The position numbers and the translations under genes were made by a program. A DNA stretch of 64,000 bases from positions 9,114,001 through 9,178,000 of the forward strand of contig OZ024752.1 in NCBI GenBank assembly GCA_964016885.1. Reading direction: 5' to 3'. Below, piece by piece: positions 6,758 through 53,639 of this stretch. How positions within the stretch are numbered: the first letter of the stretch is position 1; each line of letters opens with the position of its first letter. The notes beneath the pieces are model-generated. The model searched no databases. It saw nothing but the letters and a program-made list of their open reading frames with translations, and had not been told where the DNA came from. This DNA comes from Eledone cirrhosa (Eukaryota).

Positions 6758-8139
<1,382 letters not shown>

Positions 8140-12763: not shown

Positions 12764-13599
12764 ATTTCCTTGGGTTGTGAGAGATGTATCACTTTTGTCA
12801 CACCAAATACCTTGTTGTTGTTTCATAACAACAAGGCCACTGGCCCTGACATGTATGATATAAAGTAGAAGGAAACTGTGCTTGAAAGGACCCATACAGC
12901 CCATGAAAGCATGAAAAAATAGATGTAAAAAGGTGATAATGATATATATATAAACCACATTTAATTTGGCTAAAATTATGTAATCTAAATAAACTCTGAA
13001 ATATTGATAATTTTCTCACTGAATTTGTTTAATTAAAATATTAAATATTAAGTATTTTGAAAAATACTTGTTTTTAAAAATCAAAAATATATGTTCTATT
13101 ATCTTCTAACATATCAGAACCTTCTGCTGTCCATCTTTCTTCATTCAAGCTATTAACAATTTACTGGTAAAAGATCAACAACCATTTACTTCTGCTTCTC
13201 GTCTTTTTCTTCTTCTTCAATGCTTCCATTAATTTAATCATATTTTCTGGATCCATCTCCTTGACTTCCATTTTTTATAATACATAATATATTTATTTTG
13301 TCATTTGATAGGATCCATTACTAATTTTTCTTGAGAAGAGATGATGTGGCAGATTCAAAGAAGAGAAAGCGAGAATGATTATGTAAGAGTATTAGAATAG
13401 GTTCTAAAGAAAGGTTGAAAGTTATGAAGTTAAAGTAAAGTTACAAAGTAATATACTTTGATATGACAATGTGATGGGCAAGTATACTTACGTGACTGAG
13501 TGAATTAGAAATAAATATTTATAAAATTAAATTATTATTCAACAAAAAAAAAAATGGGGAAAACAAAAGTTATAAGATAAATAAGTCTTTAAATAATAC

Positions 13600-13635
13600 C
13601 TACTTCCAAATAATCAAACGAATCATAGGTGTCAT
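13600..13635 (-). CDS. 36-nt micro-exon, DDTYDSFDYLEV
   Basis: Acceptor ttacaatttcag, donor GTATTA, phase 1-1, no stop. Confidence 0.75.
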   Translation of the reverse strand: MTPMIRLIIWK

Positions 13636-14080
13636 CTGAAATTGTAAGAATAAAAATATATATTATTGTATATTTTCTGAATTTCTTTTGAATATTGAAA
13701 TTCCTTCAATGCGAAAATAATTAAATTTATGACTCAAAGTTAATAATATTATTTTTAATTTTAAGGGGCTTCTTAAAAAATAAAGTTGTTTGCAAGACAA
13801 ATACATTCTAATCCTGAAGCACATATATGTTCCTCTTAAACAATTTTTACATGTATGGTATAGAGATGCAATAAATTGTATTTTCTATTCTAAAGTATGA
13901 CACACACACACACATATATATAGAATGTGTGTGTGTATGTGTGTGTGTGTGTATGTGTGTTCTAAATAGAGAAAGAGTGAGGAGGGGTTGAGGTGAATGG
14001 AGGGTGACAAATAGACAAAAATATTTTCCAAGCCTAAAGAAGAAATCAGTTTGGTTATTCTTCCTCTTCTTATTATTATT

Positions 14081-14270
14081 AGTGGTTTGGCAGCATTGGC
14101 AGAGCATCAGACACCGTGTTTTGCGGTATAGAGTTATGGCCCTTTACGTTCTGAGTTCAAATCCCGTCGAGGTTAACTTTGCCTTTCATCCTTACAGGAT
14201 GAATGGCACTGGGTAATTGCTGGCCTCGTGCCAAAAGTAGAAACAATTATTATTATTATTATTATTATTA
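14081..14270 (+). mobile_element. tRNA-derived SINE with (TTA)n tail; paralogous copies at ~26480-26670, ~32311-32503, ~38594-38788
   Basis: A-box-like TGGCAGCATTGG, B-box GTTCAAATCC, (TTA)n tail. Confidence 0.75.
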
Positions 14271-15113
14271 TCTACTTCTTTTTCTTCTTTTTCACCCACA
14301 TATTCCTGGGATGGTCATGGGAGCAAAGTCCTAAAGCATGCCTTTAATACTATTGGCATGCAGTTAGAATATCTCAAGAAAGAAACGCTGGACAGATTTT
14401 ATGGGCAAAACCAACCTTCTTCTTTGCTCACATATTTCTGGGAGAGTCATGGGGGAAGAGTTCTTAAACACTCCTTCGCGTGAGTCTGGTCAGAAGCAAG
14501 CATTTCCAACAAATCTGGCTGGATCTCCAAGCACCACCCACTATGTTAATGCATTTTATCCAACCATCTCACTCGGGGTCTACTCTGGATCTTGTGATGG
14601 TTGGTTTTGCCTATAAAATATGTCCAGCAATTCTTTCTTGAGACATTCTAACATGCCCAAAGTATTGAAGCTGTGATCTCTCAATCTAGAGAAATAACAG
14701 CTCTACCTGTAGTGCCTCTCTGATCTCTGAGCTATGCATTCTATTAAGTAACATTACTCAAAAGACCTTTCAGAGGAACCACATTTCGGCCCCTTGTTTT
14801 CACAATCGTATTCTTTCTCAGCAGAGCTGTTCTCCTAGAGAACAGGACTGCAGGTAGCAGATGGCGATAAGGTCAACATATACAATGGTTAGTTGCAATA
14901 TAATCTAGTAGCTACCAGATGTACGAGCAAACCCGGACAAAGAGCGGTACATTACGAGGGGATATGAAGCAATGGCTGACACCTGTAGCTCACAAGAAAA
15001 CTGTCACAACCCTGTGATGTAGATATGATGAGGTGAGTAAAGACCACCTCTAAAAAAGACTAGTCTTGACGGGTTTGAGAAAATACCAGATTATTGACTG
15101 GCATGAATAAGAC

Positions 15114-15574
15114 TGTAGTAAGACGCCTCACGCCTCCTGGCGGATAATGGAACAACCCTAGTTGTCTCCCCCTGGTGGAGAACACCAGAGGTAAACAGAG
15201 ACAGCCACTGAAAAGCGGAGGGAACACACGCCACAGAAAACAACCTCTGTACCACGAAACGATAAACAGCCAAGGGAACAGCAAACAGCAAACCCCACAA
15301 TACCTTTGTAATTGTAATACGCTCCTTTCACCACAACTGACCGCGTCTATATTTGGTATGTTCCATTTGTAATATAATAAACACATATAAACAAAATAGA
15401 CATCACCATTATTTACAATTGTTGAATACAACTCTCGTGGTTATTGTCTTATTTACGCACACACCCACTCACTTTGTTATAATTCTCACTTACAAAAATG
15501 GTAAATAGACGAGGGACCTTCCCTCACGTCTATGTCGATAAACAATCCAACTAGGATACATTCATTTTACCACA
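15114..15574 (+). mobile_element. Gypsy 5' LTR (461 bp)
   Basis: TGTAGTAA...TTACCACA termini, preceded by AGAC target site, followed by PBS-like ctgctgaccgacg. Confidence 0.9.
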
Positions 15575-16217
15575 CTGCTGACCGACGTAAGAATTTTACG
15601 CAGCCTTTTTATTCAGTTGAACTTCACTGTTATTGCCACGTTGCCAACCTTTTCGCAACTTATGAAAATATAAAGTGTTTATACCGTATTGACAAGGTAT
15701 ACAAACCAGCCAAAAATTTTTTCCAAGATGGCGTTGCTTTCCTTCCCCGTTTTGTAATTTTCCGCCAGGACAGGGACATTTTGGAATTGCGTGTGTGTTC
15801 CATATTTGATCAAGGGAAAGAAAAAAACTTTTTCGTGAACATTACTGCCCCGCAGGGGATATACATGCCTTACTTTTTTCTAAGGGATTTTTAGCCACAG
15901 GCTACCTATTGTTGATATCCAACGTGGATATATTCTAAAACAAACTTTTTTTTCTCTCTTTTTCATGGGTTATTTGATTTGGCTGGCTCGTTGAAGCAAC
16001 ACAAGGGGACAGACGATGGAGAAAAAAATTTTTTTAAAAAAATATTTATATGTATTTTATGTATTTTTCCTATTTCCTAATGTTTTGAATGTCTGTTTCT
16101 TTTTGACCTTTCATTTTTTTTCCATTTTGGGTGTTTGCTTTTCCCTGTGCGAGGGTACATTAATTGCTGTTTATATATATATATATATATATTTTTTTTA
16201 ATTTTAAACGTTTCAAA

Positions 16218-16982
16218 ATGAATACTCCACATTTGCCCGCCTTTACCGGAAACCCTAAGCTGTGGGTGGCCCAGCTACAGGCGTATTTTACGGTCTGTAA
16301 GACCGAGTCTGACCAGTGCCTCGCTGTCTTGATTAGCGGACTTCCCCCTAATCTAGCAGATTCGGTCCAAGACCTAATTACAGACCCCCCCCCCTCTGAC
16401 TTAACGTATGAGTCTTTGAAAGGCGAGATTTTGAGAAGGAACTGTAAGTCGGTAGAGAGTTGTTTTCGGTCATTGATCGAGGACGAACGATTAGGTGACA
16501 GGACCCCTACCGCTTTTCTCCGGCATTTGCGGGAATTGAGCGATTCCCAAGATCAGGATAGCCCTTTCCTGAAGCAATTGTTCTTCTCTCGCCTACCTCA
16601 AGAGGTACAGGCGATCCTAGCCCATATCCTAGACCACATTGCTGTCTCTGCTGACAAAATTGTAGAAGTGACGAAGAGAGACACTTCGAAGCCAAAGTAC
16701 GTTGCTTCCTCTTCTCTTCCTCAATCACGCTCATCAGCGAGTGATGAGAAATTAGTCACCACAATGGAAGCCATGACTCGTCAAATGGCGGAGTTGTGCC
16801 AGGGATTCAGGTCTTTTGGACGGCAGAGGAGCCGCTCACGATGTTATTCAACTCCTCGCCACCGTAGCCCTTCCAAAACACCAAAACCACCATATTGTTA
16901 TTACCATGACAAATATGGTGACAAAGCCGCCCGTTGTAGGCCCCCTTGTGCTTACATGGGAAACGACGACCAGAGTCACTAA
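16218..16982 (+). CDS. gag: Gypsy gag
   Basis: LPAF.GNPKLW..QLQAYF N-terminus, LGDRTPTAFLR, C-terminal CYYH...C...C knuckle; slippery G GGA AAC at 16958-16964 leading into the -1 pol frame. Confidence 0.9.
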   Translation: MNTPHLPAFTGNPKLWVAQLQAYFTVCKTESDQCLAVLISGLPPNLADSVQDLITDPPPSDLTYESLKGEILRRNCKSVESCFRSLIEDERLGDRTPTAFLRHLRELSDSQDQDSPFLKQLFFSRLPQEVQAILAHILDHIAVSADKIVEVTKRDTSKPKYVASSSLPQSRSSASDEKLVTTMEAMTRQMAELCQGFRSFGRQRSRSRCYSTPRHRSPSKTPKPPYCYYHDKYGDKAARCRPPCAYMGNDDQSH

Positions 16983-19722
16983 TGGCGGATAGTGTGCTCT
17001 GCGAAACATCATCCAACCGCCACTTTTTCAGTGAGGACCTCCTATCAGGTAGAGCCTTTCTGGTTGACACAGGTGCAGTTTGTTCAATATGGCCTGTGTG
17101 TTGTATGAAGGAGACTCCCCCTGAGACACCTATTGAGTTGCAGGCAGTAAATTGTTCGCCGATTCGAACCTTTGGACAAATCTCGCTACCTTTGCAGTTC
17201 CGTAACCTGCGGCGTGAATTTAAATGGATATTTACTGTCGCTGCCTTGCCGTATCCGATTCTAGGCGCGGATTTTCTCCACCATTTTTCATTGACGGTGG
17301 ACCTCCGTCGTAAACGCCTAATTGACGGCATCACTGGTTTAACTGTTGTTGGCAAGGCAGCAGCAGTTCCAACGGTTAGCCCGACCTTTTTTCTTGCTAA
17401 CACCGGTGATACTTACCATGCGTTGTTGAACTCGTTCCCGCAACTGACTTAGGGAAATTTTCGAGTTGATGAGCCAACTCATACCACGGAGCACTTCATA
17501 TCTACAACTGGTGCTCCCGTTTTTTCTCGTCCTCGTCGCTTGCCTCCAGACAAACTCAAAGCAGCACGATCAGAGTTTGATCATATGCTGCAGTTGGGGA
17601 TTATTCGTCCGTCCACGAGCCCGTGGGCGTCCCCATTACACATGGTACCGAAAGCGACTGGCGAATGGAGACCTACTGGAGATTATCGACGCCTAAATTC
17701 GATAACGGAACCGGACCGTTATCCTATCCCTCATCTGCAAGACTTTGCGTCTTCCTTGCAGGGATGCAAGATATTCTCCAAACTGGATTTAATTCGTGCG
17801 TACCATCAAATTCCTGTCCATAAAAATGACATTCCAAAAACGGCTATAGTTACGCCATTTGGGTCATTTGAGTTTTTGACCATGCCGTTCGGATTAAGGA
17901 ATGCCGCTAGTACGTTTCAGCGGTTTATGGATGAGGTTACTCGTGGCCTCGATTTCGTCTATACCTATATTGACGACCTGCTCATTGCTAGTTCTTCTCA
18001 AGAGCAACATACACACCATTTGAATCTTCTTTTCCGCCGATTGAAGACGTATAACGTGCAGATTAATGCACCCAAATGTGTTTTTGGTGCTGAGTCACTG
18101 ACTTTCTTGGGTCACGTCATCGACGCTGACGGTATTCGACCCCGGCCTGAGCGAGTTAAGGTCATAGAGGATTTGCCTCCACCGACCTCACTACGTCAGT
18201 TACGCCAGTTCTTAGGCCTGATTAACTTTTATAGGCGTTTCGTGCCAAATTGTGCAAGATTGCTTTTCTCCCTGACAGAAATTAAAAAAAATTGTCGGAA
18301 GAGGAACAAAGACATTTCTTTGACCGACACTCAACTTGCTGATTTTCAGCACGCCAAAACTGCTTTGGCTAATGCTTCATTACTGACTCACCCGGTACCC
18401 GGTGCAAAGCTAACGCTTTGTGTTGATGCATCGGATATCGCTGTGGGCGCAGTGCTACAGCAAAACATCAATGGTTACCAGCAACCGCTGGAGTTTTTTT
18501 CCAGAAAGCTGAAACCTGCTGAGACGCGCTACAGAACCTTTGGAAGAGAGCTTTTGGCCATCTATTTGGCCGTGAAACATTTTTCACATATGCTAGAGGG
18601 TAGACTATTTACTATCCTCACTGACCATAAACCATTGACTATTGCGTTGAGAGCGAAGGCTGATAAATACTCGCCCAGAGAGACGAGACACCTTGATTTC
18701 ATCTCGCAATATACGAATGATATCCAACACATTCCGGGTTTACTAAATACAGCGGCCGATGCCTTGTCCCGCTTACTCGTGACAGCGATCTCGTCATCCT
18801 CTGACATAGATCTGACTCGTTTGGCTGCGGATCAGCCTCCCCTTGAGTCATTGGATGTTACATTGCCCAAGTTTGCGAATTGCGAGATGAAATACTTGCC
18901 TCTGTCGACTGCAGTTGGCCAAATTCTCTGCAACGTCTCTTTGGACGTGCCTAGGCCCTTCGTTCCAGAGAATCATCGTCGGACCGTGTTTCTGGCATTA
19001 CATGGTTTCTCGCATCCAGGATCTTCTGCCACAGCAAAGCTCATATCAGCTAGATTTTTCTGGCCAAATATGAGGCGTGAAATTGCTGCTTGGTGCCGTT
19101 CCTGCTTCTCTTGCCAGAAATCAAAGGTCCATCGACACGTCAAGGCTCCCCTGGGTACCTTTACTAACCCAGATGCGCGTTTTTCGCACATCCATATTGA
19201 TATAGTGGGACCTTGGCCTGTCAGCGATGGTTATTCTTATCTGCTGACCATAATTGACCGTTTTTCGAGATAGCCTGAAGCCATCCCCTTGAAAAACATC
19301 ACCGCTGAGACAACAGCGCGTGCTCTTGTGTCTGGATGGATCTCTCGTTATGGAGTTCCATTCACAGTAACTACCGACCGTGGACGACAGTTCGAGTCGA
19401 GCCTTTTCCTCGAACTATCAAAATTAATTGGTGCTAAACGCATCAGAACTACGGCGTACCATCCCGCTTCGAATGGTATGGTAGAGCGTTTTCACCGACA
19501 ACTGAAGGCCTCCTTAATGGCTTCGGCGCATTGGAGCGAGTACCTCCCTATTGTGCTACTAGGGATTCGGTCAATGGTGAAGGTCGACTTTGGATTTTCA
19601 CCGGCTGAAGTACTGTACGGTGCCCCTCTGACGTTGCCCGGGCAAATGCTTGCCCCTATCGATCTTGATGCCCAAGATCACGCTTCCTACGTGTCCCGTT
19701 TGCGCTCCTATTTCCAGGATTT
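16946..19722 (+). pseudogene. pol: Gypsy pol (protease-RT-RNaseH-integrase), two in-frame TAG stops and a truncated integrase C-terminus
   Basis: LVDTGA, YIDD, DASD/RELLA, HHCC zinc finger and DDE core, all in one frame with stops at 17450-17452 and 19271-19273. Confidence 0.95.
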
Positions 19723-19880
19723 GAGGGGATATGAAGCAATGGCTGACACCTGTAGCTCACAAGAAAACTGTCACAACCCTGTGATGTAGATATGATGAGT
19801 TGAGTAAAGACCACCTCTAAAAAAGACTAGTCTTGACGGGTTTGAGAAAATACCAGATTATTGACTGGCATGAATAAGAC

Positions 19881-20344
19881 TGTAGTAAGACGCCTCACGC
19901 CTCCTGGTGGATAATGGAACAACCCTAGTTGTCTCCCCCTGGTGGAGAACACCAGAGGTAAACAGGGACAGCCACTGAAAAGCAGAGGGAACACACGCCA
20001 CAGAAAACAACCTCTGTACCACAAAACGATAAACAGCCAAGGGAACAGCAAACAGCAAACCCCACAATACCTTTGTAATTGTAATACGCTCCTTTCACCA
20101 CAACTGACCGCGTCTATATTTGGTATGTTCCATTTGTAATATAATAAACACATATAAACAAAATAAACATCACCATTATTTACAATTGTTGAATATAACT
20201 CTCGTTGTGGTTATTGTCTTGTTTACGCACACACCCACTCACTTTGTTATAATTCTCACTTACAAAAATGGTAAATAGACGAGGGACCTTCCCTCACGTC
20301 TATGTCGATAAACAATCCAACTAGGATACATTCATTTTACCACA
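19881..20344 (+). mobile_element. Second LTR copy, flanked on both sides by AGAC and preceded by host left flank (solo-LTR-like)
   Basis: 19723-19880 repeats host flank 14956-15113; AGAC TSD on both sides. Confidence 0.9.
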
Positions 20345-20625
20345 AGACCACCAAAACTGCAATATGGTGAGAGCTAAGAAAAAGAATCATACTGCATTGT
20401 CTTTCACATTGAATATCAAGGGATGTATTCAGGCCTTAGACAGTGGGGCATGTTCAAAGAATATATTAGTCTCCATTACATGCCGTGAAAACTGGTGATG
20501 TGTCTGCAACCTGTCCTGGGAGGAGTGGCATGGATGCACAAAGATTGTGTATCTCGAGACTCCAAAGAGTGTTTGAAATGGAGCAAACATTGACTGTTTG
20601 GTATTTAGTTTTTCAAATATATATA

Positions 20626-22177
20626 TACCTGGCATTCGTCGATCTTGAGAAAGCCTTTGAAAGAGTTCCACGTGCTGTAATGTGGTGGGCTCTTAGAAAA
20701 CTAGGAGTAGATGAAGGGCTTGTGAAAGCGGTACAGGCCATGTATAGGGGAGCAGTCAGCAAAGTTAGGATTAGCAATGAGTATAGCGAGGGATTTAGCG
20801 TACAGGTTGGGGTCAACCAGGGCTCTGTTCTTAGCCCCCTCCTGTTCATCATAGTCCTGCAGGCAATAACGGAGGAGTTTAAGACTGGATGCCCATGGGA
20901 ACTCCTGTATGCTGATGACCTCGCACTTATAGCTGAATCTATGGTAGAACTAGAGATGAAATTCCAAACTTGGAACCAGGGACTAGAAAGAAAGGGTCTC
21001 AAAGTCAACATGACAAAGACTAACGTCCTTGTAAGTAGACGAGATAACAGAGCCCAGATATCCTCAGGGAAATGGCCTTGCTCAGTATGTAGGAAAGGTG
21101 TATGTAGGAACTCCATTCTCTGCCCCAAATGCAAACAATGGGTACACAAGAGATGTAGCGGGATCTCAGGAAGCTTAATTAAGAATGTAGGCTTCACATG
21201 CAGCAGTTGTGCTGGGACAGCAAGCAGCAAACAGCCACAGGAAACAAGTACCACCAATATCTGGGAGGGCTCTGTAGAAACAGTAGACAGCTTCTGCTAC
21301 CTAGGTGACCGAATTAGCAGCGGAGGTGGGTGTTCAGAAAGTACAATAACTAAGGTAAGAACGGGATGGAAGAAGTTTAGGGAACTACTTCCACTGCTAG
21401 CTGCAAAAGGCTTCTCCTTCAAAATGAAAGGCAGACTGTATGATGCGTGTATCCGAACAGCGATGTTGCATGGTAGTGAGACCTGGGCGCTGAAGGTGGA
21501 AGACTTACGTAGATTAGAGAGAAACGAAGCCTGCATGCTCCGATGGATGTGTAATAGTAATATACGTGAACAACAAAGCATAAATGAATTGAGCGAGAGA
21601 CTGAGCATAAGAGGAATCAAATGCCGTGTGCAGGAGAGGCGGTTGCATTGGTATGGATATGTGATGCGTATGAAGGATGACAGCTGCATAAAAAGGTGCA
21701 GAGCACTAGAAGTCGATGGTAACCACGGAGTGGGGAGACCCAAGATGACCTGGGATGAGGTGATAAAAGCCGACCTTACCCAATTACACCTCTCAAAGGC
21801 GATGACACACGACTGTGAACTCTGGCGTCACGCAGTAATACAGAGTACCCGACCTCCCATGGGTACAAGCTGAAGCATATAGACAATATGCCCCCCCCCC
21901 CACTGCAAGTTGGTCGTGGAGGTGCCACGGCAAAAAAAGCACCCAGCCCACACTGTAAAGTGGATGTGTAGGCGCCACAAAAAAGCACCCAGCACTCACT
22001 GTAAATGAGGTTGGTGTTAGGAAGGGCATCCAGCTGTAGAAATCAAGCCAAAATCAGTTCTTGTATGAGCAAGGCATGGTCAGCCGACCAGACACTGCCC
22101 ACAACAGGACAACCCCTCTAACCTATGCTAGCCTGGAAGAACAGACGTAAAATGGTGATGATGATGATGATGATGAT
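20626..22177 (+). mobile_element. 5'-truncated RTE-clade LINE (RT, PHD-like finger, (GAT)n tail)
   Basis: FVDLEKAF, QGSVLSP, LYADD, LHGSETW motifs; (GAT)n 3' tail; empty site at ~39902-39913. Confidence 0.93.
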
Positions 22178-22679
22178 GCATAGCACAGAGATTAGAATAG
22201 CTACTGTTAGGGCCATTACTTCTCTGATAGTATGGACATGAGATCAGAATGTTAAAGTAAAGAATCATTCCACAGATTTTATAGGAAAAACCAACTGGCA
22301 GAACACCCAGTGGTAGACCCCAGAAACAAGATGTTTGGATGAGATTCATGAGCTCAACTAGTAATGCTTGGGGATCCAGCTGGATCAATTGAAAACATTT
22401 ACTTCTGACAGGATCCACTCGAAGGCATGCTTCAGGATTTGCCTCCATGACCCTCTCAGGAATAAGTTGAAGAAGAGGAAAATGAAGAAGAGAATTGAGA
22501 AGGTGATGGTGGTGGAGAGGAAGAAGAAGAAGAAGACAATTAGTTTGAGTCTCATTAGTTGTATCTTAGAAACAATTAATAGTAGGCTCAAAATAATACT
22601 CAACAGTCCATATACACAACAAATACTCAGCTTTTACATTCTCCAAGTGGTTAACTTATAGCTGTACTCCAGTAGTTCA

Positions 22680-23540
22680 TATAAAAAGAAAAATACCGCC
22701 TAGAATACCTGGAGAAAGTCACGTTTCTCCCAAAACTGTGCAGTGTTCTTCCAGCATCATAACTTTTGTAAATCTACTATTCAAAGTGTGAAGGGAGCCT
22801 CTCTATATAAAAGAGCTCTCAAAATTTTCTAGCTTCCCAAACAGCATTTAATTTGCCTGGTTTCTTGCTAAAATTATGGCTACCAATTTTTCAGAATTCT
22901 CATTTCCTCTACTCCTCAAACAATAGTTCTGTGAACAGCTCTCTCAAGGAGAAAGCCTTCACCTTTGCCGTCCACTTTGTATGCGGCTCCACCCTACACA
23001 TACATAGTGAATCTCCACTCTATCCCATATGAAACCCTGCCCTTCATTCATAAACACCAAATACCATGTTGCTTTGTTTCATAACAATAAGGCCACTGCC
23101 CCTGACAATGAATATGTTTCCCTTGTTCACCCTGACATACTAAACAACATCTAGAAAATAGCTACTCTGCTATTCAATTTAAAGTCACTCATTGACACAC
23201 TACAGCCTCAGATCCACAGACATGATGTCTTCCCTCTCTCTGTCTCTTATACCATTACTGCAATGATCTCTTCTCCTTGAAACTTGCTAGTTTCTTACCA
23301 CCTCAACACTTAATTCCCTTACCTCTCCTTGTTGTGTCCAGGCCTCACACTAACCACTACCCTCAGTCCTTCTTGCCCACAACATTTATATTATGGAACT
23401 CAACCTCTCTTCATGTCTTTCCAGATGGAGTAGACATGAACAATCTTAAACAAAACACCAATAGCATCAATCTCTTTGGTCCCTGAAGACCTGTTAAGGC
23501 CTTGGGAAATTCCCTTCTTACAGACCTACCAAGTAAAACA
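22680..23540 (+). mobile_element. Degenerate CR1/Jockey-like LINE relic, repeated in each duplication unit
   Basis: YPQSFLPTT..LWNS...HVFP resembles the C-terminus of CR1/Jockey-group RT ORFs. Confidence 0.5.
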
Positions 23541-25450
23541 ATAAATACTTACTTTTAGGAGTGTTTGGATCAGTAACATAAATATCCCTGGTAGCAGCAG
23601 AAACTTTATCTATAAGAGATGAAATGAAAAATGAGTATATGTACTGCTTGTGTTGCTTGATATCTAAGGGCTACAGGGAAATGAAGTGGGCATGATCATA
23701 TGGATGTGTGATGTTAATGTACATGATTGACAAAGCATGGACGAGTTGAGAAGAAAACTATGTATAAGAGTAATCAAATGGATGATGATCATTGAAGCAA
23801 GAAATGTTAAGAGAGACAAGAGGAAGAAAGATGCAGTAGAGGAAGACTGAGGAGGGCTTCGGTAGATGTGGGGAGATCTGATCTCAGCAGACTGAACCTC
23901 ACAGAAGAGATTATGAATGTATGATATAAAGTAGAAGGAAACTGTACTTGAAAGGACCCATGCAGCCCATGAAAGCATGAAAAAATAGATGTAAAAAGGT
24001 GATAATGATATATATATAAACAACATTCAATTTGGCTAAAATTATGTAATCTAAATAAACTCTGAAATATTGATAATTTTTTCACTGAATTTGTTTATTT
24101 GTTTAATTAAAATATTAAATGTTAAGTATATATACATAATATATAATATATTTATTTTGTCATTTGATAGGATCCATTACTAATTTTTCTTGAGAAGAGA
24201 TGATGTGGCAGATTGAAAGAAGAGAAAGCGAGAATGATTATTCTCATTTCCTCTACTCCTCAAACAATAGTTCTGTGAACAGCTCTCTCAAGGAGAAAGC
24301 CTTCACCTTTGCCGTCCACTTTGTATGCGGCTCCACCCTACACATACATAGTGAATCTCCACTCTATCCCATATGAAACCCTGCCCTTCATTCATAAACA
24401 CCAAATACCATGTTGCTTTGTTTCATAACAATAAGGCCACTGCCCCTGACAATGAATATGTTTCCCTTGTTCACCCTGACATCCTAAACAACATCTAGAA
24501 AATAGCTACTCTGCTATTCAATTTAAAGTCACTCATTGACACACTACAGCCTCAGATCCACAGACATGATGTCTTCCCTCTCTCAGTCTCTTATACCATT
24601 ACTGCAATGATCTCTTCTCCTTGAAACTTGCTAGTTTCTTACCACCTCAACACTTAATTCCCTTACCTCTCCTTGTTGTGTCCAGGCCTCACACTAACCA
24701 CTACCCTCAGTCCTTCTTGCCCACAACATTTATATTATGGAACTCAACCTCTCTTCATGTCTTTCCAGATGGAGTGGACATGAACAATCTTAAACAAAAC
24801 ACCAATAGCATCAATCTCTTTGGTCCCTGAAGACCTGTTAAGGCCTTGGGAAATTCCCTTCTTACAGACCTACCAAGTAAAACAATAAATACTTACTTTT
24901 AGGAGTGTTTGGATCAGTAACATAAATATCCCTGGTAGCAGCAGAAACTTTATCTATAAGAGATGAAATGAAAAATGAGTATATGTACTGCTTGTGTTGC
25001 TTGATATCTAAGGGCTACAGGGAAATGAAGTGGGCATGATCATATGGATGTGTGATGTTAATGTACATGATTGACAAAGCATGGACGAGTTGAGAAGAAA
25101 ACTATGTATAAGAGTAATCAAATGGATGATGATCATTGAAGCAAGAAATGTTAAGAGAGACAAGAGGAAGAAAGATGCAGTAGAGGAAGACTGAGGAGGG
25201 CTTCGGTAGATGTGGGGAGATCTGATCTCAGCAGACTGAACCTCACAGAAGAGATTATGAATGTATGATATAAAGTAGAATGAAACTGTACTTGAAAGGA
25301 CCTATACAGCCCATGAAAGCATGAAAAAATAGATGTAAAAAGGTGATAATGATATATATATAAACAACATTCAATTTGGCTAAAATTATGTAATCTAAAT
25401 AAACTCTGAAATATTGATAATTTTTTCACTGAATTTGTTTATTTGTTTAA
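22896..25450. repeat. Local tandem duplication, offset 1344 bp; first copy internally deleted
   Basis: ORFs 23277 and 24621 are identical in translation; junction gattattctcatttc at ~24240. Confidence 0.9.
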
Positions 25451-26012
25451 TTAAAATATTAAATGTTAAGTATTTTGAAAAATACTTGTTTTTAAAAATC
25501 AAAAATATATATTCTATTATCTTCTAACATATCAGAACCATCTGCTGTCCATCTTTCTTCATTCTAGCTATTAACAATTTACTGGTAAAAGATCAACAAC
25601 CATTTACTTCTGCTTCTCGTCTTTTTCTTCTTCTTCAATGCTTCCATTAATTTAATCATATTTTCTGGATCCATCTCCTTGACTTCCATTTTTTATAATA
25701 CATAATATATTTATTTTGTCATTTGATAGGATCCATTACTAATTTTTCTTGAGAAGAGATGATGTGGCAGATTGAAAGAAGAGAAAGCGAGAATGATTAT
25801 GTATTAGAATAGGTTCTAAAGAAAGGTTGAAAGTTATGAAGTTAAAGCAAAGTTACAAAGTAATATACTTTGATATGACAATGTGATGGGCAAGTATACT
25901 TAAGTGACTGAGTGAATTAGAAATAAATATTTATAAAATTAAATTATTATTCAACAAAAAAAAAAAATGGGGAAAACAAAAGTTATAAGATAAATAAGTC
26001 TTTAAATAATAC

Positions 26013-26048
26013 CTAGTTCCAAATAACCAATCGTATCATAGAACTCAT
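26013..26048 (-). CDS. 36-nt micro-exon, DEFYDTIGYLEL
   Basis: Acceptor taatatttcag, donor GTATTA, phase 1-1. Confidence 0.75.
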   Translation of the reverse strand: MSSMIRLVIWN

Positions 26049-27789: not shown

Positions 27790-29337
27790 TACCTGGCATT
27801 CGTCGATCTTGAGAAAGCCTTTGACAGAGTTCCACGTGCTGTAATGTGGTGGGCTCTTAGAAAACTAGGAGTAGATGAAGGGCTTGTGAAAGCGGTACAA
27901 GCCATGTATAGGGGAGCAGTCAGCAAAGTTAGGATTAGCAATGAGTATAGCGAGGGATTTAGCGTACAGGTTGGGGTCCACCAGGGCTCTGTTTTTAGCC
28001 CCCTCCTGTTCATCATATTCCTGTAGGCAATAATGGAGGAGTTTAAGACCGGATACCCATGGGAACTCCTGTATGCTGATGACCTCGCACTTATAGCTGA
28101 ATCTATGGTAGAACTAGAGAAGAAATTCCAAACTTGGAACCAGGGACTAGAAAGAAAGGGTCTCAAAGTCAACATGACAAAGACTAACATCCTTGTAAGT
28201 AGACGAGAAAACAGAACCCAGATATCCTCAGGGAAATGGCCTTGCTCAGTTTGTAGGAAAGGTGTAGGTAGGAACTCCATTCTCTGCCCCAAATGCAAAC
28301 AATGGGTACACAAGAGATGTAGCGGGATCTCAGGAAGCTTAATTAAGAATGTAGGCTTCACATGCAGCAGCTGTGCTGGGACAGCAAGCAGCAAACAGCC
28401 ACAGGAAACAAGTACCACCAATATCTGGGAGGGCTCTGTAGAAACAGTAGACAGCTTCTGCTACCTAGGTGACCGAATTAGCAGCGGAGGTGGGTGTTCA
28501 GAAAGTACAATAACTAGGGTAAGAACGGGATGGAAGAAGTTTAGGGAACTACTTCCACTGCTAGCTGCAAAAGGCTTCTCCTTCAAAATGAAAGGCAGAC
28601 TGTATGATGCGTGTATCCGAACAGCGATGTTGCATGGTAGTGAGACCTGGGCGCTGAAGGTGGAAGACTTACGTAGATTAGAGAGAAACGAAGCCTGCAT
28701 GCTCCGATGGGTGTGTAATAGTAATATATGTGAACAACAAAGCATAAATGAATTGAGCGAGAGACTGAGCATAAGAGGAATCAAATGCTGTGTGCAGGAG
28801 AGGCGGTTGCGTTGGTATGGATATGTGATGCGTATGAAGGATGACAGCTGCATAAAAACTGCAGAGCACTAGAAGTCGATGGTAACCACGGCGTGGGGAG
28901 ACCCAAGATGACGTGGGATGAGGTGATAAAAGCCGACCTTACCCAATTACACCTCTCAAAGGCGATGACACACGACCGTGAACTCTGGCGTCACGCAGTA
29001 ATACAGAGTACCCGACCTCCCATGGGTACAAGCTGAAGCATATAGACAATATGCCCCCAGACCCCCCACTGCAAGGTGGTCGTGGAGGTGCCATGGCAAA
29101 AAAAGCACCCAGCCCACACTGTAAAGTGGACGTGTAGGCGCCACGAAAAAGCACCCAGCACTCACTGTAAATGAGGTTGGTGTTAGGAAGGGCATCCAGC
29201 TGTAGAAATCAAGCCAAAGTCAGTTCTTGTATGAGCATGGCATGGTCAGCCGACCAGATACTGCCCACAACAAGACAACCCCTCTAACCTATGCTAGCCT
29301 GGAAGAACAGACGTAAAATGGTGATGATGATGATGAT
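27790..29337 (+). mobile_element. RTE LINE, duplicated copy with stop and frameshift
   Basis: Paralog of 20626-22177 with the same insertion point. Confidence 0.93.
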
Positions 29338-31829
29338 GCATAGCACAGAGATTAGAATAGCTACTGTTAGGGCCATTACTTCTCTGATAGTATGGACATG
29401 AGATCAGAATGTTAAAGTAAAGAATCATTCCACAGAATTTATAGGAAAAACCAACTGGCAGAACACCCAGTGGTAGACCCCACAAACAAGATGTTTGGAT
29501 GAGATTCATGAGCTCAACTAGTAATGCTTGGGGATCCAGCTGGATCAATTGAAAACATTTACTTCTGACAGGATCCACTCGAAGGCATGCTTCAGGATTT
29601 GCCTCCATGACCCTCTCAGGAATAAGTTAAAGAAGAGGAAAATGAAGAAGAGAATTGAGAAGGTGATGGTGGTGGAGAGGAAGAAGAAGACAATTAGTTT
29701 GAGTCTCATTAGTTGTATCTTAGAAACAATTAATAGTAGGCTCAAAATAATACTCAACATTCCATATACACAACAAATACTCAGCTTTTACATTCTCCAA
29801 GTTGTTAACTTATAACTGTACTCCAGTAGTTCATATAAAAAGAAAAATACCGCCTAGAATACCTGGAGAAAGTCACGTTTCTCCCAAAACTGTGCAGTGT
29901 TCTTCCAGCATCATAACTTTTGTAAATCTACTATTCAAAGTGTGAAGGGAGCCTCTCTATATAAAAGAGCTCTCAAAATTTTCTAGCTTCCCAAACAGCA
30001 TTTAATTTGCATGGTTTCTTGCTAAAATTATGGCTACCAATTTTTCAGAATTCTCATTTCCTCTACTCCTCAAACAATAGTTCTGTGAACAGCTCTCTCA
30101 AGGAGAAAGCCTTCACCTTTGCCGTCCACTTTGTATGCGGCTCCTCCCTACACATACATAGTGAATCTCCACTCTATCCCATATGAAACCCTGCCCTTCA
30201 TTCATAAACACCAAATACCATGTTGCTTTGTTTCATAACAATAAGGCCACTGGCCCTGACAATGAATATGTTTCCCTTGTTCACCCTGACATCCTAAACA
30301 ACATCTAGAAAATAGCTACTCTGCTATTCAATTTAAAGTCACTCATTGACACACTACAGCCTCAGATCCACAGACATGATGTCTTCCCTGTCTCTGTCTC
30401 TTATACCATTACTGCAATGATCTCTTCTCCTTGAAACTTGCTAGTTTCTTACCACCTCAACACTTAATTCCCTTACCTCTCCTTGTTGTGTCCAGGCCTC
30501 ACACTAACCACTACCCTCAGTCCTTCTTGCCCACAACATTTATATTATGGAGCTCAACCTCTCTTCATGTCTTTCCAGATGGAGTGGACATGAACAATCT
30601 TAAACAAAACACCAATAGCATCAATCTCTTTGGTCCCTGAAGACCTGTTAAGGCCTTGGGAAATTCCCTTCTTACAGACCTACCAAGTAAAACAATAAAT
30701 ACTTACTTTTAGGAGTGTTTGGATCAGTAACATAAATATCCCTGGTAGCAGCAGAAGCTTTATCTATAAGAGATGAAATGAAAAATGAGTATATGTACTG
30801 CTTGTGTTGCTTGATATCTAAGGGCTACAGGGAAATGAAGTGGGCATGATCATATGGATGTGTGATGTTAATGTACATGATTGACAAAGCATGGACGAGT
30901 TGAGAGGAAAACTATGTATAAGAGTAATCAAATGGATGATGATCATTGAAGCAAGAAATGTTAAGAGAGACAAGAGGAAGAAAGATGCAGTAGAGGAAGA
31001 CTGAGGAGGATTTCGGTAGATGTGGGGAGATCTGATCTCAGCAGACTGAACCTCACAGAAGAGATTATGAATGTATGATATAAAGTAGAAGGAAACTGTA
31101 CTTGAAAGGACCCATGCAGCCCATGAAAGCATGAAAAAATAGATGTAAAAAGGTGATAATGATATATATATAAACAACATTCAATTTGGCTAAAATTATG
31201 TAATCTAAATAAACTCTGAAATATTGATAATTTTTTCACTGAATTTGTTTATTTGTTTAATTAAAATATTAAATGTTAAGTATTTTGAAAAATACTTGTT
31301 TTTAAAAATCAAAAATATATATTCTATTATCTTCTAACATATCAGAACCATCTGCTGTCCATCTTTCTTCATTCTAGCTATTAACAATTTACTGGTAAAA
31401 GATCAACAACCATTTACTTCAGCTTCTTGTCTTTTTTCTTCTTCTTCAATGCTTCCATTAATTTAATCATATTTTCTGGATCCATCTCCTTGACTTCCAT
31501 TTTTTATAATACATAATATATTTATTTTGTCATTTGATAGGATCCATTACTAATTTTTCTTGAGAAGAGATGATGTGGCAGATTGAAAGAAGAGAAAGCG
31601 AGAATGATTATGTAAGAGTATTAGAATAGGTTCTAAAGAAAGGTTGAAAGTTATGAAGTTAAAGCAAAGTTACAAAGTAATATACTTTGATATGACAATG
31701 TGATGGGCAAGTATACTTACGTGACTGAGTGAATTAGAAATAAATATTTATAAAATTAAATTATTATTCAACAAAAAAAAAAAATGGGGAAAACAAAAGT
31801 TATAAGATAAATAAGTCTTTAAATAATAC

Positions 31830-31865
31830 CTAGTTCCAAATAATCAATCGTTTCATAGATGTGAT
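31830..31865 (-). CDS. 36-nt micro-exon, DHIYETIDYLEL
   Basis: Acceptor taatatttcag, donor GTATTA, phase 1-1. Confidence 0.75.
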   Translation of the reverse strand: MTSMKRLIIWN

Positions 31866-33345
31866 CTGAAATATTAAGAATAAAAATATATATTATTGTA
31901 TATTTTTTGAATTTCTTTTGAATATTGAAATTCCTTCAATGCGAAAATAATTAAATTTATGACTCAAAGTTAATAATATTATTTTTAATTTTAAGGGGCT
32001 TCTTAAAAAATAAAGTTGTTTGCAAGACAAATACATTCTAATCCTGAAGCACATATATGTTCCTCTTAAACAATATTTACATGTATGGTATAGAGATGCA
32101 ATAAATTGTATTTTCTATTCTAAAGTATGACACACACACACACATATATATAGAATGTGTGTGTTTATGTGTGTGTGTGTGTATGTGTGTTCTAAATAGA
32201 GAAAGAGTGAGGAGGGGTTGAGGTGAATGGAGAGCGACAAATAGACAAAAATATTTTCCAAGCCTAAAGAAGAAATCAGTTTGGTTATTCTTCCTCTTCT
32301 TATTATTATTAGTGGTTTGGCAGGATTGGTAGAGCATCAGACACCATGTTTTGTGGTATAGAGTTATGGCCCTTTACGTTCTGAGTTCAAATCCCGTCGA
32401 GGTTAACTTTGCCTTTCATCCTTACAGGATGAATGGCACTGGGTAATTGCTGGCCTCGTGCCAAAAGTAGAAACAATTATTATTATTATTATTATTATTA
32501 TTATCTACTTCTTTTTCTTCTTTTTCACCCACATATTCCTGGGATGGTCATGGGAGCAAAGTCCTAAAGCATGCCTTTGATACTATTGGCATGCAGTTAG
32601 AATATCTCAAGAAAGAAACGCTGGACAGATTTTATGGGCAAACCAACCTTCTTCTTTGCTCACATATTTCTCAGAGAGTCATGGGGGAAGAGTTCTTAAA
32701 CACTCCTTCGGGTGAGTCTGGTCAGAAGCAAGCATTTCCAACAAATCTGGCTGGATCTCCAAGCACCACCCACTATGTTAATGCATTTTATCCAACCATC
32801 TCACTCGGAGTCTACTCTGGATCTTGTGCTGGTTGGTTTTGCCTATAAAATATGTCCAGCAATTCGTTCTTGAGACATTCTAACATGCCCAAAGTATTGA
32901 AGCTGTGATGTCTCAATCTAGAGAAATAACAGCTCTACCTGTAGTGCCTCTCTGATCTCTGAACTATGCATTCTATTAAGTAACATTACTCAAAAGACCT
33001 TTTAGAGGAACCACATTTCGGCCCCTTGTTTTCACAATCGTATTCTTTCTCAGCAGAGCTGTTCTCCTAGAGAACAGGACCGCAGTTAGCAGATGGCGAT
33101 AAGGTCACCAGATACAATGGTTAGTTGCAATATAATCTAGTAGCTACCAGATGTACGAGCAAACCCAGACAAAGAGCGGTACATTACGAGGGGATATGAA
33201 GCAATGGCTGACACCTGTAGCTCACAAGAAAACTGTCACAACCCTGTGATGTAGATATGATGAGGTGAGTAAAGACCACCTCTAAGAAAGACTAGTCTTG
33301 ACGGGTTTGAGAAAATACCAGATTATTGACTGGCATGAACAAGAC

Positions 33346-33806
33346 TGTAGTAAGACGCCTCACGCCTCCTGGCGGATAATGGAACAACCCTAGTTGTCTC
33401 CCCCTGGGGGAGAACACCAGAGGTAAACAGAGACAGCCACTGAAAAGCGGAGGGAACACACGCCAAAGAAAACAACCTCTGTACCACAAAACGATAAACA
33501 GCCAAGGGAACAGCAAACAGCAAACCCCACAATACCTTTGTAATTGTAATACGCTCCTTTCACCACAACTGACCGCGTCTATATTTGGTATGTTCCATTT
33601 GTAATATAATAAACACATATAAACAAAATAAACATCACCATTATTTACAATTGTTGAATATAACTCTCGTGGTTATTGTCTTGTTTACGCACACACCCAC
33701 TCACTTTGTTATAATTCTCACTTACAAAAATGGTAAATAGACGAGGGACCTTCCCTCACGTCTATGTCGATAAACAATCCAACTAGGATACATTCATTTT
33801 ACCACA
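33346..33806 (+). mobile_element. Gypsy solo LTR
   Basis: 461 bp, TG...CA, AGAC TSD on both sides. Confidence 0.93.
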
Positions 33807-34087
33807 AGACCACCAAAACTGCAATATGGTGAGAGCTAAGAAAAAGAATCATACTGCATTGTCTTTCACATTGAATATCAAGGGATGTATTCAGGCCTTA
33901 GACAGTGGGGCATGTTCAAAGAATATATTAGTTTCCATTACATGCCGTGAAAACTGGTGATGTGTCTGCAACCTGTCCTGGGAGGAGTGGCATGGATGCA
34001 CAAAGATTGTGTATCTCGAGACTCCAAAGAGTGTTTGAAATGGAGCAAACATTGACTGTTTGGTATTTAGTTTTTCAAATATATATA

Positions 34088-35622
34088 TACCTGGCATTCG
34101 TCGATCTTGAGAAAGCCTTTGACAGAGTTCCACGTGCTGTAATCTGGTGGGCTCTTAGAAAACTAGGAGTAGAAGAAGGGCTTGTGAAAGCGGTACAGGC
34201 CATGTATAGGGGAGCAGTCAGCAAAGTTAGGATTAGCAATGAGTATAGCGAGGGATTTAGTGTACAGGTTGGGGTCCACTAGGGCTCTGTTTTTAGCCCC
34301 CTCCTGTTCATCATAGTCCTGCAGGCAATAACGGAGGAGTTTAAGACCGGATGCCCATGGGAACTCCTGTATGCTGATGACCTCGCACTTATAGCTGAAT
34401 CTATGGTAGAACTAGAGAAGAAATTCCAAACTTGGAACCAGGGACTAGAAAGAAAGGGTCTCAAAGTCAACATGACAAAGACTAACGTCCTTGTAAGTAG
34501 ACGAGAAAACAGAACCTAGATATCCTCAGGGAAATAGCACTTGCTCATTATGTAGGAAAGGTGTAGGTAGGAACTCCATTCTCTGCCCCAAATGCAAACA
34601 ATGGGTACACAAGAGATGTAGCGGGATCTCAGGAAGCTTAATTAAGAATGTAGGCTTCACATGCAGCAGCTGTGCTGGGACAGCAAACAGCCACAGGAAA
34701 CAAGTACCACCAATCTCTGGGTGGGCTCTGTAGAAACAGTAGACTGCTTCTGCAACCTAGGTGACCGAATTAGCAGCGGAGGTGGGTGTTCAGAAAGTAC
34801 AATAACTAGGGTAAGAACGGGATGGAAGAAGTTTAGGGAACTACTACCACTGCTAGCTGCAAAAGGCTTCTCCCTCAAAATGAAAGGCAGACTATATGAT
34901 GCGTGTATCTGAACAGCGATGTTGCATGGTAGAGAGACCTGGGCGCTGAAGGTGGAAGACTTATGTAGATGAGAGAGAAACGAAGCCTACATGCTCCGAC
35001 GGATGTGTAATAGTAACATACGTGAACAACAAAGCATAAATGAATTGAGCGAGAGACTGAGCATAAGAGGAATCAAATGCTGTGTGCAGGAGAGGCGGTT
35101 GCGTTGGTATGGACATGTGATGCGTATGAAGGATGACAGCTGCATAAAAAGGTGCAGAGCACTAGAAGTCGATGGTAACCACGGCGTGGGGAGACCCAAG
35201 ATGACGTGGGATGAGGTGATAAAAGCCGACCTTACCCAATTACACCTCTCAGAGGCGATGACACACGACCGTGAACGCATTAATAGAGAGTACCCGACCT
35301 CCCATGGGTACAAGCTGAAGCATATAGACAATATGCCCCCACACTCCCCACTGCAAGGTGGTCGTGGAGGTGCCACGGCAAAATAGGCACCCAGCCCACA
35401 CTGTAAAGTGGACGTGTAGGCGCCACGAAAAAGCACCCAGCACTCACTGTAAATGAGGTTGGTGTTAGGAAGTGCATCCAGCTGTAGAAATCAAGCCAAA
35501 TCAGTTCCTGTATGAGCAAGGCATGGTCAGCCGACCAGACACTGCCCACAACAAGACAACCCCTCTAATCCATGCTAGCGTGGAAGAACGGACGTAAAAC
35601 GGTGATGATGATGATGATGATG
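34088..35622 (+). mobile_element. RTE LINE, duplicated and degraded copy
   Basis: Paralog of 20626-22177 with several stops and indels. Confidence 0.92.
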
Positions 35623-38114
35623 CATAGCACAGAGATTAGAATAGCTACTGTTAGGGCCATTACTTCTCTGATAGTATGGACATGAGATCAGAATGTTAAA
35701 GTAAAGAATCATTCCACAGAATTTATAGGAAAAACCAACTGGCAGAACACCCAGTGGTAGACCCCACAAACAAGATGTTTGGATGAGATTCATGAGCTCA
35801 ACTAGTAATGCTTGGGGATCTAGCTGGATCAATTGAAAACATTTCCTTCTGACAGGATCCACTCGAAGGTATGCTTCAGGATTTGCCTCCATGACCCTCT
35901 CAGGAATAAGTTGAAGAAGAGGAAAATGAAGAAGAGAATTGAGAAGGTGATGGTGGTGGAGAGGAAGAAGAAGAAGAAGACGATTAGTTTGAGTCTCATT
36001 AGTTGTATCTTAGAAAAAATTAATAGTAGGCTCAAAATAATACTCAACATTCCATATACACGACAAATACTTAGCCTTGAAATTCTCCAAGTGGTTAACT
36101 TATAGCTGTACTCCAGTAGTTCAGATAAAAAGAAAAATAATGCTTAGAATACCTGCAGAAAGTCACCTTTCTCCCAAAACTGTGCAGTGTTCTTCCAGCA
36201 TCATAACTTTTGTAAATCTACTATTCAAAGTGTGAAGGGAGCCTCTCTATATAAAAGAGCTCTCAAAGCTTTCTAGCTTCCCAAACAGCATTTAATTTGC
36301 CTGGTTTCTTGCTAAAATTATGGCTACCAATTTTTCAGAATTCTCATTTCCTCTACTCCTCAAACAATAGTTCTGTGAACAGCTCTCTCAAGGAGAAAGC
36401 CTTCACCTTTGCTGTCCACTTTTTATGCGACTCCACCCTACACATACATAGTGAATCTCCACTCTATCCCATATGAAACCCTGCCCTTCATTCATAAACA
36501 CCAAATACCATGTTGCTTTGTTTCATAACAATAAGGCCTCTGGCCCTGACAATGAATATGTTTCCCTTGTTCACCCTGACATCCTAAACAACGTCTAGAA
36601 AATAGCTACTCTGCTATTCAATTTAAAGTCACTCATTGACACACTACAGTCTCAGATCCACAGACATGATGTCTTCCCTCTCTCTGTCTCTTATACCATT
36701 ACTGCAATGATCTCTTCTCCTTGAAACTTGCTAGTTTCTTACCACCTCAACACTTAATTCCCTTACCTCTCCTTGTTGTGTCCAGGCCTCACACTAACCA
36801 CTACCCTCAGTCCTTCTTGCCCACAAATTTATATTATGGAACTCAACCTCTCTTCATGTCTTTCCAGTTGGAGTGGACATGAACAATCTTAAACACCAAT
36901 AGCATCAATCTCTTTCGTCCCTGAAGACCTGTTAAGGCCTTGGGAACTGTCCCTTCTTACAGACCTACCAAGTAAAACAATAAATACTTACTTTTAGGAG
37001 TGTTTGGATCATTAACATAAATATCCCTGGCAGCAGCAGAGGCTTTATCTATAAGAGATGAAATGAAAAATGAGTATATGTACTGCTTGTGTTGCTTGAT
37101 AACTGAAGGCTACAGGGAAATGAAGTGGGCATGATCATATGGATGTGTGATGTTAATGTACATGATTGACAAAGCATGGACGAGTTGAGAGGAAAACTAT
37201 GTATAAGAGTAATCAAATGGATGATGATCATTGAAGCAAGAAATGTTAAGAGAGACAAGAGGAAGAAAGATGCAGTAGAGGAAGACTGAGGAGGGCTTCG
37301 GTAGATGTGGAGACATCTGATCTCAGCAGACTGAACCTCACAGAAGAGATTATGGATGTATGATATAAAGTAGAAGGAAACTGTGCTTGAAAGGACCCAT
37401 ACAGCCCATGAAAGCATGAAAAAATAGATGTAAAAAGGTGTTAATAATATATATATAAACAACATTCAACTTGGCTAAAATTAAGTAATCTAAATAAACT
37501 CTGAAATATTGATAATTTTTTCACTGAATTTGTTTATTTGTTTAATTAAAATATTAAATATTAAGTATTTTGAAAAATACTTGTTTTTAAAAATCAAAAA
37601 TATATGTTCTATTATATTCTAACATATCAGAACCATCTGCTGTCCATCTTTCTTCATTCTAGCTATTAACAATTTACTGGTAAGAAGATCAACAACCATT
37701 TACTTCAGCTTCTTGTCTTTTTTCTTCTTCTTCAATGCTTCCATTAATTTAATCATATTTTCTAGATCCATCTCCTTGACTTTCATTTTTTATAATACAT
37801 AATATGTTTATTTTGTCATTTGATAGGATTCATTACTAATTTTTCTTGAGAAGAGATGATGTGGCAGATTGAAAGAAGAGAAAGCGAGAATGATTATGTA
37901 AGAGTATTAGAATAGGTTCTAAAGAAAGGTTGAAAGTTATGAAGTTAAAGCAAAGTTACAAAGTAATATACTTTGATATGACAATGTGATGGGCAAGTAT
38001 ACTTAAGTGACTGAGTGAATTAGAAATAAATATTTATAAAATTAAATTATTATTCAACAAAAAAAAAAATGGGGAAAACAAAAGTTATAAGATAAATAAG
38101 TCTTTAAATAATAC

Positions 38115-38150
38115 CTTGTTCCAAATAATCAATCGTTTCATAGAACTCAT
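38115..38150 (-). CDS. 36-nt micro-exon, DEFYETIDYLEQ
   Basis: Acceptor taatatttcag, donor GTATTA, phase 1-1. Confidence 0.75.
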
Positions 38151-53633: not shown

Positions 53634-53639
53634 AGTTTA

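Follow-up and report, generated by a model that had tools for sequence, protein, structure and literature searches.

The vertebrate proteins SIRP-alpha, LILRB, CEACAM1, PD-1 and Gab1 (with its bis-tyrosine site) carry several tyrosine motifs, with SHP2-type motifs about 25-35 residues apart, and vertebrate receptors bearing immunoreceptor tyrosine-based inhibition motifs (ITIMs) have a variable V-type distal domain and tails that are not known to be recent tandem exon arrays. Here we describe a gene of Eledone cirrhosa with duplicated tail exons. The window analysed, C12:9,114,001-9,178,000 of a 3.0-Gb assembly (64,000 nucleotides; positions without a prefix refer to it), holds the 3' half of a type I immunoglobulin superfamily (IgSF) receptor gene on the minus strand, and our best reading of the sequence is that the gene encodes an ITIM-leaning, exon-modular SH2-docking tail on a diversifying octopod IgSF receptor.

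The Botryllus FcoR proteins form a polymorphic type I family in which ITIM, hemITAM and core tyrosine motifs vary by allele and alternative splicing (10.1101/2024.10.16.618699). The lineage-specific IgSF proteins of the Hydractinia Alr system have unusual V-set domains, recent duplications, alternative splicing and tails with ITIMs or immunoreceptor tyrosine-based motifs for activation (ITAMs) (PMC9546547). Draper-I and Draper-II arise from one gene that supplies an ITAM or an ITIM by splicing, the ITIM form recruiting the phosphatase Corkscrew (PMC4503800). In molluscs, oyster CgIgIT2 (PMC11999971) and NCAM1-ITIM (PMC11841013) are Ig-transmembrane-tyrosine-motif receptors with single motifs or pairs; the accessible text of the review PMC11999971 has 0 mentions of octopus, cephalopod or squid. 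No polymorphic ITIM/ITAM-type receptor family was described for cephalopods in the literature searched, from which most subscription journals were absent, and neither was the octopod family identified below nor its LOC identifiers.

Exon map of the tail

The tail exons follow the transmembrane exon in the order C1, A1, B1, A2, B2, A3, B3, B3', A4 and last exon, which gives the cassette order A-B-A-B-A-B-B-A. Two paralogues, at 39.2 Mb and 5.39 Mb of C12, served for comparison.

41916..41972, minus strand: C1, first tail exon, 57 nt, phase 1-1, without tyrosine (splice anatomy; in both paralogues)
38115..38150, minus strand: A1 tail exon, 36 nt (YETI, YLEQ); AG...GT, phase 1-1
36992..37048, minus strand: B1 tail exon, 57 nt (DIYVN; YxN motif); AG/GT anatomy and reads
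31830..31865, minus strand: A2 tail exon, 36 nt (YETI, ITIM-consensus IDYLEL); AG...GT, phase 1-1
30707..30763, minus strand: B2 tail exon, 57 nt (DIYVT); splice anatomy
26013..26048, minus strand: A3 tail exon, 36 nt (YDTI, ITIM-consensus IGYLEL); AG...GT, phase 1-1
24897..24953, minus strand: B3 tail exon, 57 nt (DIYVT); splice anatomy
23553..23609, minus strand: B3' tail exon, 57 nt, identical to B3; splice anatomy, 1.2-1.3-kb duplication
13600..13635, minus strand: A4 tail exon, 36 nt (ancestral-type YDSF, YLEV); AG...GT, phase 1-1
10579..10643, minus strand: predicted last coding exon (two tyrosines, stop codon); conserved in the 39.2-Mb paralogue, a prediction without read support

A preliminary description of this DNA reported four 36-nt minus-strand exons with AG...GT sites in phase 1-1, and its coordinates and translations for them all hold. 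It assigned one exon to each duplication unit of about 6 kb. However, a 57-nt B exon lies between every pair of A exons, and while the first two A-to-A intervals (6285 and 5817 nt) agree with that unit length, the last (12413 nt) does not. The four B copies are in phase 1-1, encode D-I-Y-V-(N/T) and have the donor AAA/GTAAGT; B1-B3 sit 1059-1066 nt downstream of A1, A2 and A3, and the fourth copy is found 1287 nt further on. Together an A-B pair measures 93 nt, or 31 residues, 12 from A (YxxI-x-YLE(L)) and 19 from B.

A stringent splice-site scan of the 40-kb tail interval returned 13 candidates, nine of them C1 and the A and B exons. In the 39.2-Mb paralogue the scan returned exactly seven, C1 and (A-B)x3; what was duplicated is therefore a pair of exons. 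Candidates at 49247, 44837 (in a long interspersed nuclear element), 33835 and 20373, all within 50100-10500, were dropped for want of a counterpart in the paralogue. A possible exon at 47646, with a strong acceptor and either a 16-nt frame-shifting or a short stop-containing form, is likewise absent from the 39.2-Mb paralogue and was not counted; from that acceptor a six-codon frame runs to a stop (47646-47626, minus strand), which could yield a tail-less isoform, and this feature is shared with the 5.39-Mb copy.

With a tight pattern, eight A exons were found in the whole assembly, four at the locus, three at C12:39.23 Mb and one at C12:5.39 Mb, and the reversed-pattern control gave 0 matches. 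A loose exon filter passed on average 0.23 (36 nt) and 0.35 (57 nt) exons in shuffled 64-kb strands, with a maximum of 2 in 60 shuffles, compared with five (36 nt) and four (57 nt) on the real minus strand and none on the plus strand; this test is weak alone, since the copies share one ancestor, and it is exon order, homologues and reads that carry the case. All tail exons are open with intact splice sites. The cassettes permit 192 distinct in-frame tails, none with an internal stop, in keeping with the earlier statement that any subset stays in frame.

Tyrosine motifs

The tail that includes every exon is 172 residues long, with 15 tyrosines, two ITIM-consensus sites and one YxN site, and contains no ITAM, strict or with 6-12 spacing. 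The definitions used agree with the accessible text of PMC9546547, where ITAM spacing is 6-9. The ITIM consensus (S/I/V/L)xYxx(I/V/L) is present in only two of the four A copies, A2 and A3, and in all three of the 39.2-Mb paralogue. The all-exon tail of that paralogue has 3 ITIM, 3 YxN and 0 ITAM. It had also been proposed that splicing neighbouring A exons together creates ITAMs, but the neighbours of A exons are B exons, and ITAMs arise only where B is skipped, with three strict ones when all B exons are left out (four in the 39.2-Mb paralogue). An ITAM is present in 48 of the 192 possible tails. Because the A exons have B exons as neighbours, three of the four junctions put forward as a test are skipping junctions and not the default ones. 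We infer a default product of ITIM/adaptor type rather than ITAM type.

Receptor gene and paralogues

The gene comprises a signal exon, Ig exons in the order D2-D1-D2-D1-D2-C2, the transmembrane exon and the tail, and looks intact. Ig folds, signal exon, one transmembrane segment, phase 1-1 exons and a single terminal stop together identify a type I IgSF receptor. The two exons nearest the tail lie in the window:

54235..54561, minus strand: membrane-proximal CD80-like C2-set Ig exon, 327 nt, phase 1-1 (Pfam PF08205, E 2e-6, above the cut-off; 44-58% identical to octopod receptors)
50030..50134, minus strand: transmembrane exon, 105 nt, phase 1-1 (in both paralogues)

The signal exon is at C12:9,222,655, beyond the window, and a 200-N assembly gap between it and the first D2 may hide another D1. 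Upstream of the window, C12:9,179,520-9,211,780 is an ectodomain tandem array with three D2 and two D1 Ig exons. No Pfam Ig match was obtained for D1 or D2. The D2 model (predicted local distance difference test, pLDDT, 88) matches V-type Ig folds (E 2.8e-5, template-modelling score 0.70), and the D1 model (pLDDT 95) gives weak Ig fold matches (E 2.6e-3), among them nectin-1, CD2/CD58 and 2B4.

The 39.2-Mb paralogue has a signal exon, eight Ig exons, transmembrane exon, C1, (A-B)x3 and a last exon. Its five proximal Ig exons are missing at the locus and are replaced by distal D1-D2 repeats, which nearly restores the Ig exon total (6 here versus 8). The 5.39-Mb copy (C12:5.39-5.44 Mb) is a recent duplicate of the locus gene, 96-99% identical, and consists of (D1-D2)x3, transmembrane exon, C1, one B and one A, without C2; no match to the last exon and no alternative to it was found there, and the copy is possibly a pseudogene or a short-tailed partner. 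Distant D1-D2-D1-like Ig exons at C1:171,631,662-171,634,507 (D2 35% identical) represent a further family member, the tail of which was not found.

Duplication history and sequence change

12851..41247, no strand: segmental duplication array with the A-B unit, longest pairs 96.6-98.3% identical

That the tail of a type I Ig receptor has grown by segmental duplication of in-frame cassettes, as first suggested, is supported. B3 and B3' stem from a duplication (22896-24129 versus 24240-25473) of 99.5% identity. The B exon behind A4 has been lost, and homology to the A-B intron stops at 12851. Among the four copies here, the intron flanks of the A exons share 97.8-98.8% identity; compared with the 39.2-Mb copies the figure is about 94%. 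In a tree of the A flanks, the three 39.2-Mb copies split from the other five at 100/100. Because they form their own clade, the arrays of the two paralogues have thus expanded separately, or been homogenised separately. The tree of the B flanks was mostly unresolved.

The A exons of the locus have 10 variable sites in 36, and the introns 42 in 1432 (Fisher p 1.6e-7). All seven variable codons alter the residue, and both tyrosines are kept in all eight copies of the assembly. The three 39.2-Mb A copies are identical. The B exons within the gene show no significant excess of change (4/57 versus 3/137, p 0.11). In the ectodomain Ig exons, the proportion of nonsynonymous differences (pN) is 2-4 times that of synonymous ones (pS), with mean pairwise pN/pS, values that are not independent of each other, of 0.074/0.020 for D2 (7 copies) and 0.145/0.064 for D1 (6 copies); the intron baselines of D1 and D2 align poorly and are unusable. 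The 11 most variable D2 positions (32, 34, 36, 42, 45, 47, 50, 52, 54, 92 and 95) fall on two strands, the one with the core Trp and its successor, on the following loop and on the final hairpin, which match the C, C', C'-C'' and FG elements. We read this variation as lying on the GFCC' face predicted from the D2 model, where V-type domains usually bind their ligands.

An octopod receptor family

A homology search with the C2 exon against longer proteins found no match, but a full HMMER scan of 1.84 billion representative sequences with that exon did, with 14 matches, seven at E below 1e-10. Four of these seven have names, and each is an uncharacterised protein from Octopus sinensis, O. bimaculoides or Argonauta hians. 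Among the weaker seven, four were read, and comprise one repetitive and unrelated sequence, two sequences that by our reading are immunoglobulin-heavy-chain-like and one short C2-like piece. A second protein search returned 11 proteins, 10 of them named Octopus. In these searches the only close relatives of the gene were uncharacterised octopod proteins, whose names carry no function. Members of the family are:

O. sinensis XP_036359227.1 / LOC115212116; O. vulgaris CAI9722596.1; Argonauta hians GAB1598814.1
O. bimaculoides LOC106869178, LOC106879981, LOC106874069, LOC106874055

The locus gene shares with this LOC115212116-like family a homologous D1-D2-C2 head (42-60% identity in D2) and YL(E/C)x/YVN tail modules. 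The relatives' tails alternate a YL(E/C/P)(L/M) module of about 20 residues with a 14-residue YVN module. Of 11 such tails, 4 contain YLE[LMI], 9 contain Y[VIAG]N and 4 contain a DIYVN-like word. Both module types alternate there, so A-B alternation is a family trait. The double-tyrosine module has 12 residues in the locus gene, compared with 20 in the octopod relatives, and as to the ectodomain it is the 39.2-Mb paralogue that has the full eight-Ig layout, five proximal Ig exons being replaced in the locus copy by repeats of the distal D1-D2 pair.

The relatives' isoforms, which are annotated gene models, add or omit whole 14- or 20-residue modules: LOC106869178 has 15 distinct tails (15/16 members), LOC106879981 has three among five members and LOC106874069 has nine (15/17 members). 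The tails of some relatives contain different repeated modules, of the LYAKV, IYALV and YADL/YADI types, so the family has expanded several unrelated tyrosine cassettes.

Read depth as a hint of expression

None of the sequencing runs matching the locus is on record as RNA, and reads were compared over 36955-50300. Four runs of unrecorded kind contain 0.29 of the locus words, where the 39.2-Mb paralogue itself shares 0.27. In runs X2-X4, exon A and introns have similar depth (56-96), as in DNA. In run X1 the summed contig depth, a quantity that cannot rank gene parts, reaches 316 over exon A (38136-38137) and 424 over exon B (37041), compared with 2.9-4.5 at introns; given the bin mean of 22.2, arithmetic confines the deep contigs to some 28-30 nt, a length like that of exon A. 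At B, about 130 of the depth of 424 have the base found in B1 or in the 5.39-Mb copy. As a hint only, run X1 fits spliced RNA with both A and B.

Proposed mechanism and alternatives

With a probability of roughly 0.6, we regard the gene as an octopod IgSF receptor whose A-B tail was lengthened by unequal crossing-over of the two-exon unit and whose ITIM/adaptor docking is set by copy number and skipping. Binding of a ligand to the V-like D2 domains, on their variable GFCC' face, would cluster the receptor, and a Src-family kinase (SFK) would phosphorylate the acidic tyrosine sites. With B keeping them 31 residues apart, the ITIM-like YLEL sites may then dock a tandem-SH2 phosphatase of SHP2 type, and an adaptor of Grb2 type may bind the YxN sites, with copy number and cassette skipping setting the valency and the mix of docking sites. 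The SHP2 sites of Gab1 and PD-1 have a spacing similar to 31 residues, and YxN sites would suit Grb2. An SH2 exon in the genome has SHP2 as all of its matches at E below 1e-22, and a possible SHIP-like SH2 exon gave an ambiguous match. Elsewhere, C6:17.10-17.18 Mb contains four SH2 exons in 80 kb, two of them near-identical and one of these best matching Csk (E 2e-28); the cluster is a tandem expansion of Csk-like genes.

Several observations weigh against this proposal. The motifs are partly decayed at the locus, with an ITIM in 2/4 A exons and YxN in 1/4 B exons, and among the relatives' tails only 5/10 have a consensus ITIM and 7/10 have YxxM, so the protein that reads the tyrosine sites may be a different one. 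The kind of run X1 is not on record, and its A variant is of the YDS type (A4 and the paralogues), not of the A1-A3 types. No splice junction was seen among the joints listed, where repeats dominated, which is not evidence against splicing. The amino-acid excess in A could be mimicked by gene conversion as an alternative to selection, and 0 synonymous among about 11 changes is not significant alone (19% synonymous sites). The ectodomain pN/pS comparison is weakened by the dependence among its pairs.

A different use of the same exons is that B is a regulated spacer, its inclusion giving ITIM and YxN sites and its skipping giving A-A ITAMs that recruit Syk or Shark. The ITAMs obtained by removing all B exons, and their presence in a quarter of the possible tails, speak for such a switch, as do the skipping of a 14-residue YVN-type module in two annotated O. 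bimaculoides genes (and of another 14-residue module in a third) and the ITAM/ITIM splice switching published, in the text accessible, for Draper (PMC4503800) and Botryllus FcoR (10.1101/2024.10.16.618699). However, the B donor is better than that of A (one mismatch to the donor consensus versus 3-4), the x8 spacing would follow from any 12-residue exon, and no A-A junction was observed among the joints listed. Strict ITAMs are found in 0 of 10 relatives' tails, one of the ten having a poor transmembrane call, and loose ones in 2/10. Of 35 SH2 matches, 20 were translated (3 compared with PDB), and none of these was recognised as Syk/Shark. We consider an ITAM switch built across A-A junctions unlikely. 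The same doubt attaches to the fuller view of a positively selected octopod recognition family with duplicated phase 1-1 cassettes at both ends and B as a spliced spacer between inhibition and activation. If true, inclusion of B would produce the 31-residue repeat for a tandem-SH2 phosphatase and its skipping junction-only ITAMs, so that one gene would flip between inhibition and activation and copy number would set the gain.

It is also conceivable, if rather improbable, that the protein is an adhesion, neural or gamete recognition receptor of a nectin/nephrin/CD2-like kind with the tail as an adaptor scaffold (Grb2, PI3K, SFK). This would agree with nectin-1, CD2/CD58 and 2B4 among the weak D1 fold matches and with relatives' tails rich in YxN and YxxM rather than ITIM. 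On the other hand, a turnover of paralogues restricted to one lineage, the loss and gain of domains, and an excess of pN over pS on a single face are usual in recognition receptors under conflict; reproductive or self-recognition proteins can have the same pattern.

We give still less credence to a neutral by-product, in which repeat-rich introns drive duplications in a decaying paralogue and the extra exons are without function. Compared with the 39.2-Mb paralogue, the locus copy has lost five Ig exons and a B exon, its motifs have decayed in part, the 5.39-Mb copy has no C2, a single A and no last exon, and the A1-A3 variants were not seen in run X1. Against this, every exon is open with intact splice sites, the A exons diverge faster than introns at the amino-acid level only and keep both tyrosines, and the reference-type B base (of B1 or the 5.39-Mb copy) is present in run X1. 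A false expansion in the assembly is very improbable: B3 and B3' do lie in a 99.5% identical 1.2-kb pair and the ectodomain part has a 200-N gap, but the A flanks differ by 1.2-2.2% between copies, the units have private insertions, and DNA-like runs are, as a hint only, 3-4.6 times deeper on unit-derived contigs (71, 96) than on unique neighbours (22, 21).

Repeats in the window

At 14956-20344, Gag/protease/reverse transcriptase (RT)/integrase-like open reading frames (ORFs) with stops (16164-19789) and a flanking 622-bp direct repeat form an element that we take, from its motifs, to be a Gypsy-type long terminal repeat retrotransposon. The same repeat recurs, whole or shortened, at the matching place in the other tail units. 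Decayed non-LTR retrotransposon copies with endonuclease/RT-like ORFs, presumably of the RTE family, lie at 20470-21873, 27634-28872, 33932-35386, 44050-46641, 52200-53664 and 56620-61950, and one such copy was duplicated together with a tail unit. Downstream of the gene, minisatellite arrays with units of 37 bp and 48 bp and an AT-rich microsatellite of 1.4 kb occupy 1469-3636 and 6761-8139, and their long ORFs are artefacts.

Comparison with known receptors

The locus is a concrete candidate for a cephalopod receptor family of this type and for a fast-evolving recognition receptor, being lineage-restricted, copy-number variable at both ends and fastest changing on the predicted ligand face. 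It shows how duplication of an exon pair, in each of two paralogues on its own, assembles and re-tunes a phosphotyrosine tail with many sites, and the revised exon map puts the idea of a splice switch within direct reach of experiment. The likeness of the gene to the vertebrate ITIM receptors is one of features. Draper is not known as an Ig protein. By analogy, the gene may work like the ITIM-bearing recognition receptors, Botryllus FcoR and Draper. FcoR belongs to another phylum, and no tandem exon array or motif-spacing pattern is described in the accessible text (10.1101/2024.10.16.618699). No FcoR or Hydractinia Alr protein was among the named family-search matches, and no direct comparison was made. 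Like the locus gene, Alr is a lineage-specific, unusual IgSF family, but as far as the accessible text goes it differs in its V-set, I-set and Fn3-like domains and contiguous ITAMs (PMC9546547). The Draper isoforms each carry their own motif, which in the text available is not built at junctions of repeated exons (PMC4503800), and a repeated cassette like that of the locus gene is not reported in the accessible text for oyster CgIgIT2 (PMC11999971) or NCAM1-ITIM (PMC11841013). Splice-based motif switching thus has precedent; what is new is that an exon pair, duplicated repeatedly and in recent time, makes up the tail of a receptor in an octopod Ig family that is diversifying.

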